A DNA stretch of 58,207 nucleotides, filler included, from Malassezia furfur (GCA_052055015.1; 3 parts of 3 records of this genome joined end to end with filler, not necessarily neighbours in it); one strand, 5' to 3'. Counted from the first letter of the whole stretch, positions 3,771 to 58,207 are shown. Translations and numbers: made by a program. Notes: a model not told the origin generated them from the sequence alone.

Positions 3771-4771
3771 ATGACGCGGCATCCAAGGCCAGGACCACTT
3801 AGGAGTCGCAGTAGAGAGGCCTCACGATCGACAACGAGAGAAGCATCTTCTCGTGCAACAGGATGTGCGGATGAACAGGAGCTGGAGCACATGCTTGGAA
3901 ACTTGCTGAACGATATACCCGCTCGCCGTATCTATGGGGCACAAAGAAGATATAACGTGCTTTTTCCTCGTCCGCATATCAGAGAACTCGGATACACCGC
4001 TAAGGAACTGGAAGGCAGCGAGAATCTGCTACAGAAACCGCATTCATACTCCATCAAGTTTCCAAGCCCGTCAGCGGCTCATGCTGAAGGTATGCAATAC
4101 AAACTAACACACCAGTCTTTGATCGTCCAGAATACCCACAGTCTCCTGTGCCAGTACACAAAAACGCATCGGCCAACCGCAACTCTCGTACCAGCATCGC
4201 AATGGCATCCCTCGACCATGAACGCCTTTTACATCAACAACGCGGTCGATGGAAATCTTTGCATACTTCTACGCATACACCGAATATCGCACATCTTGCA
4301 GCAGATGATCTCAAGGAAAATTGGCTGCCAATTGCGCAAAAAGAGCAGAACAAAACAGCCGGTTCAGTCGGGTCTCGTCCCTTGAAATCGTCAACGCGAG
4401 GAAATGGACATATTACAGCTTCAGGGGTACCTGTACCAAGAAACGCGACACCGAGGCGCGAGCCCTTGCAAGAACAAGATGTGTTTTTCTCGCCAAAAGT
4501 GATCTCTGCTTTGCCTGCGGGCCTCTCAAACGATGCAACGGGGGAGCAAGAAGACTCAGGTTCGAGTTCTTATTACATGTTCCCCTTACATACCCCCGAA
4601 CAGCCGCGTCTCGACTTCTACGAACCGACTGACCCTTTCGCAGATGCGATCTTATTCGATGAGCAATACGCATTCCGAAGACGACGTATAATCCGGAACG
4701 CAAGCAAATCAACGATAGCTTTCCACCTTCCTACTGGGTCTCTAGACATTCAGGGGCACCAAGGTGTTTAA
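3771..4771 (+). CDS. Hypothetical protein, two exons (26-nt intron 4090-4115)
   Basis: Removing GTATGC...ACTAAC...CAG (4090-4115) joins ORF 3723-4385 in frame to ORF 4148-4771. No family recognised. Confidence 0.55.
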
Positions 4772-4887
4772 TCAATTGTATATACGCATATTCTCAGGTG
4801 CAAGTAGGGCGAGCAGTCAGGAGAGCATTCTACATAACTTCTTGCTAGGGATTATATTGTCTATGTCGCTACTCCATTTCAACTGAA

Positions 4888-4998
4888 GGCAAGATGGCCG
4901 AGTGGTCTAAGGCGCTGTGTTCAGGCTCCTTCAAAGGGATACCTTGACAACAAAATCGCAGTCTCCCTGAGGCGTGGGTTCGAATCCCACTCTTGTCA
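4888..4998 (+). tRNA. tRNA-Leu(CAG) with ~30-nt intron (4926-4955)
   Basis: Acceptor stem GGCAAGA/TCTTGTC; A-box TGGCCGAGTGG; anticodon stem CTGTG/CGCAG around TT-CAG-G; long variable arm; GGTTCGAATCC; downstream T-run. Confidence 0.93.
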
Positions 4999-5290
4999 CA
5001 CTTTTTGCATTTTTATTTTTTGGATCAGAAATGGCGTCTGCACCCTTTTTTTTTTTTAGTCAACCAGCTGCGCATTCAGTTGGATTACCAAGCTATTTGC
5101 CTTGGCAAAAATCGCCGATCCTACTGGACTGCTGCCAAATAGTATGTCGTATGAGCTAAGGTCTCCCTCCGTTATAAAGCGCGTCGTCTCCTCCCCTTTC
5201 CCCACTTCTTAAATTTTATACCCCTCGCCTAGAAGGAAAAATTCGCTCTTCTCTGTTTTCGTCGCTGGTGTACCTGAACTTGCAGCTATA

Positions 5291-7009
5291 ATGACGACGA
5301 ACCAGAACATACCAACGGACGTGGAGCACCACATGGCTCCCGCTGAGATCAAGAAAGCCGAGGAGCTCAAGGAAGACATCCGCGAGCATGACGAGATGCT
5401 AATTCGCTCGAACCACATCGAGGCTGCGGCCATCGACGAGGTGTATGGCCGGAAAGTTTACATCTTTAACAAGATTATTAACGAGCATATCGGCATGACC
5501 TGGTGGCAGTGGGGTCTGCTCTGTGTTTCCGGTGTGGGGTGGCTCATTGATAACGCGTGGCTGCAGGGTGTTGCCATCATTCTGCCGCAAGTTGCCAACG
5601 AGTTCAACGTGGAGCACCCCGAGTTCATGACGGTCGCTCTGTATGCCGGTCTCATCTGCGGTGCTGCGTTCTGGGGTATCGCGGCCGATATTCTGGGACG
5701 CCGTCTTTCGTTCAACGCTACTCTTTTTATTGCTGGTGTGTTTGGTATTGCCGCGGGTGGTCCGACCAACTTCACGGCCCTCGGTGGCCTTTTGGCCGCT
5801 CTGGGTTTCGGCTTGGGTGGTAGTCTGCCGGTGGATGGCATGCTTTTCCTCGAGTTCCTGCCGGGAAACAGCCAATATCTGCTGACGCTGCTTTCCGTCT
5901 TCTGGTCCCTGGGCCAGCTGATGGCATCGCTGATCGGCTGGGGCTTTATTGCTACCTGGCATTGTGTTGATGCTCAGTGTTCGGTCAAGAACGGCAGTGG
6001 TTGGGTCACCGACAACGTCGGCTGGCGCTACTTCAACTTCACGATTGGTGCATTTACGCTCGCGTGTTTCTTCCTGCGTTTTGTTGTGTTCAAGATTCCC
6101 GAGAGTCCCAAGTTCCTGCTCTCGAAGGGCCGCGATGAGGAAGCCGTCGAGGCGATGAAGCGCTTTGCTATCATGTGTGGCAAGCCGCTGCCCGATGACA
6201 TGCTTACGGTCGAAATCCTGCGCTCGGCTGCTGGTCAAGACGACGCAATGGACGACGACCCGTCGGTGGAGGAGCTGATTCACGAGCACCCCAAGAACCT
6301 GGTGGGCAAGACGATCCACGACATCCGCATGTTTATGTTCAACGCGCGCACGATCGACATGCGGAAGTCGATCACGCACATCAAGCCGCTGTTTTCGACG
6401 TTTGCGCTTGGCTACACTACGGTGGTGATTTGGATCCTGTGGGCCTTCATTGGTCTTGCATACCCGCTCTTCAACTCGTTCATTCTTCTGTATCTCGAGA
6501 AGTCGGGTGGTGGCAGTGACGTTACCACCAACTCCATGTCGGAGACCTACCGCAACTATGTGATCATTTCGGTGTGTGGTATCCCCGGCAGTCTGCTTGC
6601 CACGTGGATGGTCAACCTGCCCCGCAGTGGTCGTCGCGGTGCGATGGCCATCGGTACGCTGCTGAGTGGTATTTTCCTTTATGGCTTCACGGCGATGTCA
6701 ACGAGTGATGGTACCCTTGCATTCAGTTGTGTGACGGCGTTCACGCAAAACATCATGTATGGCGTGTTGTACTGCTACACGCCCGAATCCTTCCCCGCGC
6801 CCATGCGTGGAACGGCCGATGGAATTGCCTCAAGCCTCAACCGCATGTTTGGTATCCTTGCGCCGATCATCAAAATCTATGGCGTGCCCGCTGATGCCAC
6901 CAAGACGCAGGCGTCCGTGCCGATCTATGTCGGCGCGACGCTGTTCATGATCTCTGGTCTGCTGATGCTCACGCTGCGTGTGGAGACAGCAGCCCGCACA
7001 TCTCTGTAA
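5291..7009 (+). CDS. Major facilitator superfamily transporter (sugar-porter/SV2-like)
   Basis: 572-aa ORF with about 12 hydrophobic helices; motifs ADILGRR, PESPKFL, YTPESFPAPMRGT. Confidence 0.9.
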   Translation: MTTNQNIPTDVEHHMAPAEIKKAEELKEDIREHDEMLIRSNHIEAAAIDEVYGRKVYIFNKIINEHIGMTWWQWGLLCVSGVGWLIDNAWLQGVAIILPQVANEFNVEHPEFMTVALYAGLICGAAFWGIAADILGRRLSFNATLFIAGVFGIAAGGPTNFTALGGLLAALGFGLGGSLPVDGMLFLEFLPGNSQYLLTLLSVFWSLGQLMASLIGWGFIATWHCVDAQCSVKNGSGWVTDNVGWRYFNFTIGAFTLACFFLRFVVFKIPESPKFLLSKGRDEEAVEAMKRFAIMCGKPLPDDMLTVEILRSAAGQDDAMDDDPSVEELIHEHPKNLVGKTIHDIRMFMFNARTIDMRKSITHIKPLFSTFALGYTTVVIWILWAFIGLAYPLFNSFILLYLEKSGGGSDVTTNSMSETYRNYVIISVCGIPGSLLATWMVNLPRSGRRGAMAIGTLLSGIFLYGFTAMSTSDGTLAFSCVTAFTQNIMYGVLYCYTPESFPAPMRGTADGIASSLNRMFGILAPIIKIYGVPADATKTQASVPIYVGATLFMISGLLMLTLRVETAARTSL

Positions 7010-57089: not shown

Positions 57090-57136
57090 GGCGGTCGAGG
57101 CGGCGCCGCCAACTTTTTTGGCGCTGCGTAAGCACA

Positions 57137-57142
57137 CACGTG
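57137..57142. promoter_or_regulatory. CACGTG site in the 102-bp divergent PRP43/SEC13 promoter
   Basis: CACGTGAC centred between ATGs 57089 and 57192. Confidence 0.5.
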
Positions 57143-57191
57143 ACGTGGAGCCACATGGCGCGGCGGCAACGCGGCAGCTACGCCATCCGCC

Positions 57192-58207
57192 ATGGTGCGT
57201 AGGAGGCCCAGTGTGCTGACTCAGGTGTCCCAGACGTTTGCGAGTGCACCTACCGCGAGTACCGATACCAAGACGGTAGAGACGTACCACGAGGACGTTG
57301 TGGTAGGTTTGGTTCGGCGCGCTGACCCAGCACGATGCGCAGCTCGACTTCTATGGCAGCAAGCTGGCGACCTGCTCGTCCGACCGCACCATCAAGGTGT
57401 TTGACGTGCAGAACGGCACGGCCGTCAGTGCGGGAGAGACGCTCGTAGGCCACGAGGGGCCTGTGTGGCAGGTCGCGTGGGCGCACCCGTCGTTCGGCAC
57501 GATCCTGGCCAGTGCGTCGTACGACGGCAAAGTGTTCATCTGGAAGAACGAGGGCACGGGCGCGCAGTCGTACGGCGCGAGCTGGACGCGGATCAAGGAC
57601 CATGCGCTTCACACGGCGTCGGTCAACTCGATCGCGTGGGCGCCGCACGAGCTCGGCGCGACGCTGGCCTGTGCGTCGTCGGACGGCAAGGTGTCGGTCC
57701 TGACGTTCAACAGCGACGGGTCGTGGTCCGTGGACATTGTCACGGCCCACCCGACGGGCAGCAACGCCGTGTCGTGGGCGCCGGCCGTGGTGGCGTCCTC
57801 GGACGCGAACGAGGCGGTGCCGCTCGTGCGCCGCTTTGCGACCGCGGGCTGTGACCCGGTGGTGAAGATTTGGGAGTTCAGCGATGAGCACAACCGCTAC
57901 ATCGAAGTCGATCAGCTGGCTGGCCACAACGACTGGGTGCGCGATGTGGCGTTTGCGCCGAACCTTGGGCTCGCGCGCACCTACCTGGCGACGGCGTCGC
58001 AGGACCGCACTGTGGTCATCTGGACGCAAAACGCCCCCGGCGCGCCGTGGAACAAGACGGTGCTCCAGCCCAAGACGGACAAGGAAGACCCGACCAAGTT
58101 CCCGGACACGGTGTGGCGCGTGAGCTGGAGCGTCAGCGGCAACGTGCTTGCCGTGAGCTGCGGCGACGGCAAAGTGTCGCTCTGGAAGGAGAACCTCAAG
58201 GGTGCAT
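57192..58207 (+). CDS. SEC13: COPII/nuclear pore WD40 protein Sec13 (introns 57195-57224, 57303-57330); runs off the window edge
   Basis: Spliced [61 protein letters not shown]. Confidence 0.95.

Follow-up and report, generated by a model that had tools for sequence, protein, structure and literature searches.

The genes on a 58-kb stretch of DNA from a Malassezia yeast (hereafter, the window) are interrupted by 25 GT-AG segments of only 22–28 nucleotides (nt). Read from the DNA and from protein comparison, these segments are very probably ordinary U2-type spliceosomal introns of an M. furfur-like yeast, reduced almost to their recognition signals. They have GT and AG ends on the sense strand, a GTRNGT-like 5′ site and a YTNAY box, and their removal restores the reading frame and the encoded protein. 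An original prediction made on the same DNA had proposed pervasive spliceosomal micro-introns of fixed architecture, a phenomenon that may already have been described in part for the genus. Homology bore out this core reading, and the earlier description was also found; the genome-wide reach of the proposal rests on this one window, to which the word 'pervasive' and all counts given below (25–32 introns) apply.

The origin of the DNA was examined with NUP85, one of the interrupted genes. The translation of its exon 2 was 99% identical to the protein of M. furfur CBS14141 and 96% identical to that of M. brasiliensis, and the full spliced NUP85 model gave 99.2% and 92.8% identity, respectively, which places the window within Malassezia. 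As these identities are so high, the DNA appears to come from M. furfur or a very near relative. The guanine-plus-cytosine (GC) content in 5-kb bins is 58–68% across the window, which carries approximately 34 tightly spaced genes on both strands, with candidate introns in approximately 20 of them.

Sequence architecture of the micro-introns

When verifying the predicted positions, we found that all 25 segments had exactly the expected length, started with GT and ended with AG. Thirteen of them are on the plus strand and 12 on the minus strand, in each case the sense strand of the interrupted gene. The earlier count of about 31 introns, six of them of 30 nt or more, held for the short set, and had to be revised for the remainder: our recount gave 32 candidates, seven of which are 30–65 nt long. 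Lengths of 22–28 nt were found in 25 of the 32 candidates, and the median of the 32 in the window was 24 nt.

The 5′ hexamer was GTACGT in 15 of the 25 short introns, GTATGT in three, GTAGGT in two, and GTGCGT, GTGGGT, GTATGC, GTACGA and GTACGC in one each; position +5 was G in all 25 and position +6 was T in 22. A YTNAY box was present near every 3′ end, reading CTCAC in 12 introns and CTGAC in seven (19 of 25 together), CTAAC in one, and five other variants once each. The general form proposed earlier could thus be confirmed for most introns, as GTRYGT was read in 19 of 25, the CT(C/G/A)AC box in 20 and a CAG 3′ end in 23. The putative branch A is at intron position 16–23, with a gap of 6–13 nt between the 5′ hexamer and the branch box, and its distance to the 3′ end is 5 nt in 17 introns, 6 nt in five and 8–9 nt in three. 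Since only 5–9 nt separate the putative branch A from the 3′ end, the introns cannot accommodate a polypyrimidine tract, the absence of which had also been predicted. Because the signals and the branch-to-3′ spacing are nearly fixed, the variation in intron length is almost wholly variation of the spacer. The GC content of the introns is 57%.

In the first intron of HAM1 (36583–36606), the reading frame and the Pfam match indicate use of the AG 8 nt past the putative branch A, although a nearer AG is present at 3 nt. This choice hints at a minimum distance between the branch and the AG.

To estimate how often such patterns arise by chance, we resampled the window 100 times with a second-order Markov model, which served as the null. 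The strict pattern GTAYGT-N6–13-CTNAY-N1–5-AG occurred 17 times on the two strands, always at a listed intron, against an expectation of 0.39 (standard deviation 0.63, maximum 3), corresponding to an approximately 40-fold enrichment. A version with a looser 5′ site occurred 29 times, 24 of these being listed introns, compared with 6.74 ± 3.03 in the resamples (maximum 15), and a still looser regular expression did not discriminate between the window and the Markov resamples.

The lengths of seven of the 25 introns are multiples of three. Two of these (28322 and 36583) contain an in-frame stop codon and five (21576, 25041, 25146, 31724 and 54933) do not, a sample far too small for any estimate of bias. 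Jaillon et al. reportedly observed in 2008 that introns whose length is a multiple of three and which lack a stop codon are under-represented in Paramecium; no such deficit was visible among these seven introns, a number that is again far too small.

Proteins, orthologous loci and deposited gene models

After excision of the 25 segments, the frames of 15 of the 16 gene models were free of stops, and in the sixteenth (L36) stops occurred only past its own stop codon, the model being over-extended. In NUP85, segments of 22, 22, 22 and 25 nt bridge five open stretches in three frames, giving one frame of 693 codons. Pfam was scanned with 38 exon translations one by one, and 28 of them had a match at E ≤ 0.05. 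The same family was found on both flanks at eleven junctions, and the profile coordinates were collinear in all eleven cases.

At five junctions the two parts of the profile abut exactly. The 28-nt intron at 50518–50545 (plus strand) in GTP cyclohydrolase I separates profile positions 81 and 82, and in a zf-CHY gene profile positions 2–20 end the exon in front of the 22-nt intron at 31481–31502 (plus strand), with positions 21–63 opening the next. In PRP43/DHX15 (54933–54956, minus strand, 24 nt, a multiple of three without an in-frame stop), OB_NTP_bind position 62 is at the penultimate residue of one exon and position 64 at residue 1 of the next. The GST gene (54193–54217, minus strand, 25 nt) has GST_C_3 positions 10–35 up to residue 29 of 30 in one exon and 38–103 from residue 2 of the following one, and at NUP85 intron 3 (52452–52473, minus strand, 22 nt) profile position 421 is the last residue and position 423 is residue 2. 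In HAM1/ITPase, the Ham1p_like matches are collinear over both exons around 36583–36606 (plus strand, 24 nt, with an in-frame stop), and cover positions 39–88 and 99–185, also collinear, on the exons flanking 36778–36800 (plus strand, 23 nt).

Four protein motifs that splicing was expected to restore were recovered. (i) KHKQRQG is in mitochondrial ribosomal protein L36 (11450–11474, plus strand, 25 nt), where the Ribosomal_L36 match over positions 1–35 of 38 closes at the exon end with KHKQ, followed by RQG and the stop codon. (ii) NAWDHV is in a tRNA m3C methyltransferase (36309–36334, minus strand, 26 nt); NAW and DHV are joined without a break in 12 of 14 basidiomycete orthologues, the two exceptions being a truncated model that starts at DHV and a model with a 7-residue insertion. 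(iii) SGGCG is in a BolA3-like protein (28322–28345, minus strand, 24 nt, with an in-frame stop), the downstream exon of which starts with GCG; the alignment with human BOLA3 begins at the very first residue of this exon, opposite residue 32, and adds to the Pfam match. A search of PDB with exon 1 of BOL3 gave no match. (iv) HDAQLD begins exon 2 of SEC13, behind the 28-nt intron at 57303–57330 (plus strand).

Profile ends also coincide with exon ends elsewhere. The BolA profile has reached position 68 of 76 at the end of the exon in front of the second intron of the BolA3-like gene (28171–28193, minus strand, 23 nt), which precedes the last eight codons. In an SPT8-like WD40 gene (34116–34138, plus strand, 23 nt), the WD40 profile is at position 35 of 39 by residue 221 of 222, and the next exon starts with QWD. 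The spliced form of an importin-9/Cse1-like gene (21576–21599, minus strand, 24 nt, a multiple of three without an in-frame stop) matches most of 13 orthologues. At this site it has the exact sequence of a 330-residue protein (P0158, 99% identical) on a 1649-nt Logan contig, which would be transcript evidence for the splicing of this intron, provided that the contig is derived from RNA. Altogether, 17 of the 25 introns were supported by independent homology, five had moderate support, and three were supported by motif and frame only.

We searched metagenomes with a profile of 13 Malassezia NUP85 proteins and obtained six loci (L001–L006), whereas a scan of the metagenomes with a single NUP85 exon did not retrieve any relative. 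The six loci represent three other Malassezia species, as they include two near-duplicate pairs and L002 is like L003 at the compared junctions. Their GC content is 51–54%, and the gene order SEC13, PRP43, NUP85, GCH1 is the same as in the window. A tblastn search of the six syntenic loci with the GST gene, which is located between PRP43 and NUP85 in the window (53917–54723, minus strand), gave no match.

The orthologous DNA of three other Malassezia species was found uninterrupted across six of the listed junctions. NUP85 is a single unbroken frame across all four window junctions in all of the metagenome loci, and the NUP85 proteins of four distant Ustilaginomycotina are contiguous at all four. 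The junctions of introns 1 (53455–53476) and 2 (52925–52946), both of 22 nt, and of intron 3 are intronless in four loci, and that of the 25-nt intron 4 (51979–52003) in L001, L003 and L004; all four introns are on the minus strand. The sites of the 24-nt PRP43 intron and the 28-nt GCH1 intron are unbroken in two species (L001 and L004), and L003 has GT...AG insertions of 42 nt (PRP43) and 72 nt (GCH1) at the very same codons. In SEC13 the intron position is common to all, with lengths of 28 nt in the window and 28, 59 and 38 nt in the relatives. Lists of further candidates selected by motif and frame in the relatives' loci include false positives and were used only qualitatively. As read from these loci, the presence or absence of introns varies within the genus, the NUP85 introns being absent from three species and the PRP43, GCH1 and SEC13 positions being shared with at least one. 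Since none of three relatives has any of the four NUP85 introns, some of the micro-introns may be recent gains. The possibility of an introner-like burst was considered and set aside; the spacers differ, and with only approximately 7 nt of each intron unconstrained, similarity among the introns cannot be judged.

Deposited gene models handle these introns poorly. We compared four NUP85 models (P0002, P0009, P0001 and P0003) with the window gene (51713–53882, minus strand). In the model of M. furfur CBS14141, three of the four micro-introns are each followed at once by a gap, of 20, 18 and 27 residues, and the CBS9595 model diverges at all four junctions, with 48 and 18 residues missing after the first two and 6 and 5 residues missing just before the last two. 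In the models of M. brasiliensis and M. psittaci, residues are missing beside one junction each; the mis-modelled regions immediately after these two junctions hint that both species also have the corresponding NUP85 introns. At one NUP85 site the removed stretch starts from the same GTACGT donor and extends over 103 nt to a distal AG, and at another the deposited model takes a 40-nt alternative. The errors fit gene predictors that apply a minimum intron length.

The M. brasiliensis model of the m3C methyltransferase (P0028; window gene 35438–36468, minus strand) starts with MRRDHV and is devoid of exon 1. In the M. cuniculi protein (P0036), the seven residues YVEAAYR are inserted between NAW and DHV; this looks like a translated read-through intron of 21 nt, one base under the proposed 22-nt floor. 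A deposited protein of another species (P0149) has a read-through-like insertion at the importin site 21576.

Alternative explanations and further features of the window

Several points weigh against the reading of the 25 segments as spliced introns with a defined minimum size. The branch point was taken to be the A of the YTNAY box and thus assigned by consensus. Retention of the five multiple-of-three introns without a stop codon would escape the frame analysis, since the frame stays open. It is possible that the Logan contig represents DNA of a strain without the intron at 21576. The 22-nt floor, from which the original prediction had deduced a spliceosome adapted to very small lariats, is the minimum among 25 introns of one 58-kb window and is no demonstrated limit. 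Finally, the evidence is not equally strong at all sites.

The five sites with moderate support are the following. An ankyrin/CCCH zinc-finger gene has two introns on the plus strand that are multiples of three without a stop: splicing of 25041–25067 (27 nt) keeps the ankyrin spacing, to which the unspliced form would add nine residues, and splicing of 25146–25169 (24 nt) gives LLAH-N-ADA, which fits the repeat consensus, with eight extra residues in the unspliced form. The spacing of repeats seen in solved ankyrin proteins is retained only after splicing. The first intron of the zf-CHY gene (31397–31419, plus strand, 23 nt) is right behind the start codon, and the next exon begins at zf-CHY profile position 2. 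In a gene for an acyl-CoA-binding protein, with its ACBP domain upstream, the frame changes at 32042–32066 (minus strand, 25 nt), which precedes the last 15 codons, and the coding score is high on both sides. At 54309–54331 (minus strand, 23 nt) in the GST gene, a 91-nt middle exon in another frame was chosen on the basis of Pfam and coding score.

Three sites have the motif and the frame only. The segment at 4090–4115 (plus strand, 26 nt, GTATGC...CTAAC...CAG) links two open stretches, 124 and 217 codons long, that are in different frames; the gene could be placed in no family, as it had no Pfam match, and its coding score was low. The 22-nt candidate at 27949–27970 (plus strand) was selected by motif and position in a lineage-specific gene (27130–28114), the only homologues found for which were two close unspliced open reading frame calls, uninformative on this intron. 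In the tail of the zf-CHY gene, the 24-nt candidate at 31724–31747 (plus strand, a multiple of three without a stop) has the motif and a supporting coding score.

The possibility exists that the introns are real, but that a sizeable share of them, chiefly 21576, 25041, 25146, 31724 and 54933, is spliced inefficiently or conditionally. Retained multiple-of-three introns would then give isoforms with 8–9 extra residues, or constitute a regulatory brake as in the short introns of microsporidia. We consider this improbable. An in-frame stop is indeed missing in five of the seven multiple-of-three micro-introns, but the extra residues would disrupt the spacing in the OB fold, the ankyrin repeats and the importin tail, and intronless orthologues do not have them. 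The read-through-like insertions in deposited proteins of other species at two sites (P0149 and P0036) could reflect retained introns, although they are explained more simply as annotation read-through. Very short microsporidian introns are cited as poorly spliced in excerpts of a recent paper (PMC13644364), whereas 99% of the annotated introns of M. sympodialis have RNA sequencing (RNA-seq) junctions according to the excerpted genome report (PMC5389616).

It is highly unlikely that the segments are chance GT...AG matches, or sequencing or assembly indels, in genes that are in fact intronless or are pseudogenes. GC-rich DNA holds many long spurious open frames, and the loose motif had approximately seven chance matches per resampled window; the strict motif, however, was enriched approximately 40-fold, and all 25 segments are on the coding strand and restore the frame. 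Although three of the listed sites are without homology support, the exact homology at 17 of the 25 effectively refutes chance for at least those, and insertions caused by random errors would not have GTACGT...CTSAC-N-CAG in common.

Removal by translational bypass, by frameshifting, or by excision with an endonuclease and ligase of the HAC1/tRNA type could be suggested by the very small size of segments whose splicing is read from DNA and protein comparison, but is scarcely credible, as the 5′ site, the branch box and the 3′ CAG are canonical fungal spliceosomal signals, relatives hold longer canonical introns (42, 72, 59 and 38 nt) at orthologous positions, and neither hairpins nor take-off and landing codons are needed as an explanation.

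The seven longer candidates of the window are as follows. In a cytochrome b5-like gene, an intron of 65 nt (49606–49670, minus strand; 47 nt with the alternative donor at 49652) is followed by an exon with Cyt-b5 profile position 13 at residue 2, and the 65-nt version accommodates the 12 profile positions upstream. GTP cyclohydrolase I contains a 39-nt intron (50369–50407, plus strand, a multiple of three without a stop), across which the profile is collinear; the site is unbroken in all three other species, where L001, L003 and L004 read EE(Q/R)LC|DVI. A 38-nt candidate in the 5′ part of the same gene (49940–49977, plus strand) has the motif and the reading frame only. The gene for ribosomal protein uL14/L23e has a 39-nt intron in front of its last 15 codons (51425–51463, plus strand), the Ribosomal_L14 profile having reached position 106 of 122 by the exon end.

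The other three are candidates that had not been listed by coordinate. Two are 31-nt candidates on the minus strand with the motif only, one near the 5′ end of a nucleotidyl-transferase gene (12882–12912) and one at 14244–14274. The third is a 30-nt candidate with the motif, including a CTGAC box, right behind the start codon of SEC13 (57195–57224, plus strand), which is likely to be an additional SEC13 intron. In the SEC13 genes of L001 and L004, GT..AG segments of 25 and 23 nt, respectively, are seen by eye directly 3′ of the ATG.

Some other features of the window were observed. A large gene (45148–48797, minus strand) that encodes a protein kinase with a KA1 domain has a Pkinase profile match that begins only at position 36, and an open stretch upstream of the match (48303–48797) is in a different frame; another unrecognised intron may join this stretch to the kinase frame. 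An Rfam scan of the window gave two tRNA matches and no small nuclear RNA. The tRNA genes are at 4888–4998 (plus strand) and at 40096–40179 (minus strand), the latter being tRNA-Arg(TCG). ARAGORN reported one of the two and missed 4888–4998, which probably contains an intron, as it is 111 nt long. Four runs of N of 44 nt each (19380–19423, 19436–19479, 38808–38851 and 38864–38907) form two pairs with 12 bases between the members; they are presumably masked stretches, in intergenic or gene-end regions.

Relation to known short introns and significance

The introns of Saccharomyces follow the consensus GTATGT...TACTAAC...YAG, and typical fungal introns are 50 to several hundred nt long, with longer branch-to-3′ distances as well. 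Canonical fungal U2-type introns have a strong 5′ site and branch box, are recognized by intron definition and have little or no polypyrimidine tract, and the window introns resemble them in these respects. One report (PMC8476143) gives mean intron lengths of 63 base pairs (bp) for Cryptococcus and 397 bp for S. cerevisiae.

That short introns had already been reported in Malassezia, as the original prediction stated, was borne out by the literature. The 5350 manually curated introns of M. sympodialis have a mean length of 30 bp, and 5271 of them (99%) are supported by RNA-seq (PMC5389616). The introns of M. restricta have an average length of 37.2 and a median of 30 (PMC9241646), annotators of Malassezia genomes have set the minimum intron length to 15–20 (PMC6473144), and a review mentions 'very short introns' in Malassezia genes (PMC7426719). 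The published introns as excerpted, including those of M. arunalokei, have in common with the window introns the genus, a compact genome, GT-AG ends and a length of tens of bases. They differ in size, the median being 24 nt here against a mean or median of 30 there, and at two orthologous sites one relative has introns of 42 and 72 nt where the window has introns of 24 and 28 nt, respectively. As short introns are already published for the genus, the M. furfur-like micro-introns are a more extreme case and not a new class; the trait is a genus-wide feature of Malassezia, with the M. furfur-like lineage at the short extreme.

The excerpted accounts of M. sympodialis and M. restricta introns contained neither a splice-signal architecture nor a branch-to-3′ spacing. 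A literature search, the scope of which did not extend to subscription-only papers, found no 22–25-nt mode, branch spacing or change of the spliceosome in Malassezia, and no description of deposited M. furfur or M. brasiliensis models that mis-splice micro-introns. In the accessible text of M. furfur papers, introns appear only in the methods or in connection with mitochondria, and the word 'intron' is absent from the M. furfur hybridisation genome paper (PMC9040865). The excerpts of a 2026 paper on ultra-short introns name ciliates, Microsporidia and dicyemids as exceptions with introns of less than 30 bp and do not name Malassezia (PMC13644364). The 22–25-nt mode, the approximately fixed 5-nt branch-to-3′ spacing, the presence and absence of introns within one genus and the mishandling by deposited models may therefore be new.

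Introns in a narrow length range near the physical minimum, with GT-AG ends, are found in ciliates such as Paramecium. The ciliate Stentor coeruleus has introns of 15–16 nt, with the branch A at position 10 of the 15-nt introns, in the excerpted report (PMC9505925); these are like the window introns in their narrow, near-minimum lengths, their GT-AG ends and a branch A 5 nt from the 3′ end, as in 17 of the 25 introns here. In contrast, the Stentor introns are AU-rich (75.6%) and have no strong branch consensus (PMC9505925), whereas those of the window have 57% GC and a strong CTSAC box, and the distance from the 5′ end to the branch is at least 16 nt in the window and 10 in Stentor. Microsporidia, dicyemids and myxozoans have median or modal intron lengths of approximately 22–27 bp in reduced genomes, similar to the lengths found here, according to the excerpted paper (PMC13644364). 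They are obligate parasites whose gene sets are highly reduced, whereas Malassezia is a culturable commensal yeast.

The window introns would be recognized by intron definition and removed by canonical U2-type splicing. The branch point would be the A of the CTSAC box, and the 3′ site would be the first AG at least approximately 5 nt past the branch A, picked by proximity and without a polypyrimidine tract. The strong, near-invariant GTACGT and CTSAC signals would offset the missing auxiliary intron sequence. The lower length limit (a stretch of approximately 16 nt up to the branch A and 5 or 6 nt beyond it) may correspond to the shortest linker that joins the 5′ site and branch helices in the catalytic core. 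The 5-nt branch-to-3′ spacing may be a general minimum, since the 15-nt introns of Stentor have 5 nt too. A more far-reaching proposal, which we regard as possible but doubtful, is that the M. furfur clade is at a hard geometric minimum of splicing, with at least 16 nt to the branch A, a fixed 5 nt thereafter, no polypyrimidine tract and a choice of the 3′ site by proximity that is largely independent of factors of the U2AF65/Mud2 type, and that this lineage has shrunk ancestral introns and in addition possesses introns that other Malassezia do not have.

The findings have practical consequences for work on these skin fungi. As deposited models mishandle micro-introns, proteome studies inherit truncated or altered proteins, and the default minimum intron sizes of read mappers and gene predictors will repeat the mis-modelling. 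Introns of 22–25 nt with three nt between the putative branch A and the AG constitute a natural test of what the canonical spliceosome needs of its RNA, and the differences in presence, absence and length at orthologous sites within one genus are tractable for studies of intron loss, gain and shrinkage. Transformation and CRISPR tools are available for Malassezia, according to one report (bioRxiv 10.1101/638429), the methods of which also point to public RNA-seq data of M. furfur CBS14141. If the M. furfur clade is indeed at the geometric minimum, a culturable and transformable yeast would offer the best available model of splicing at minimal intron size and of intron turnover.

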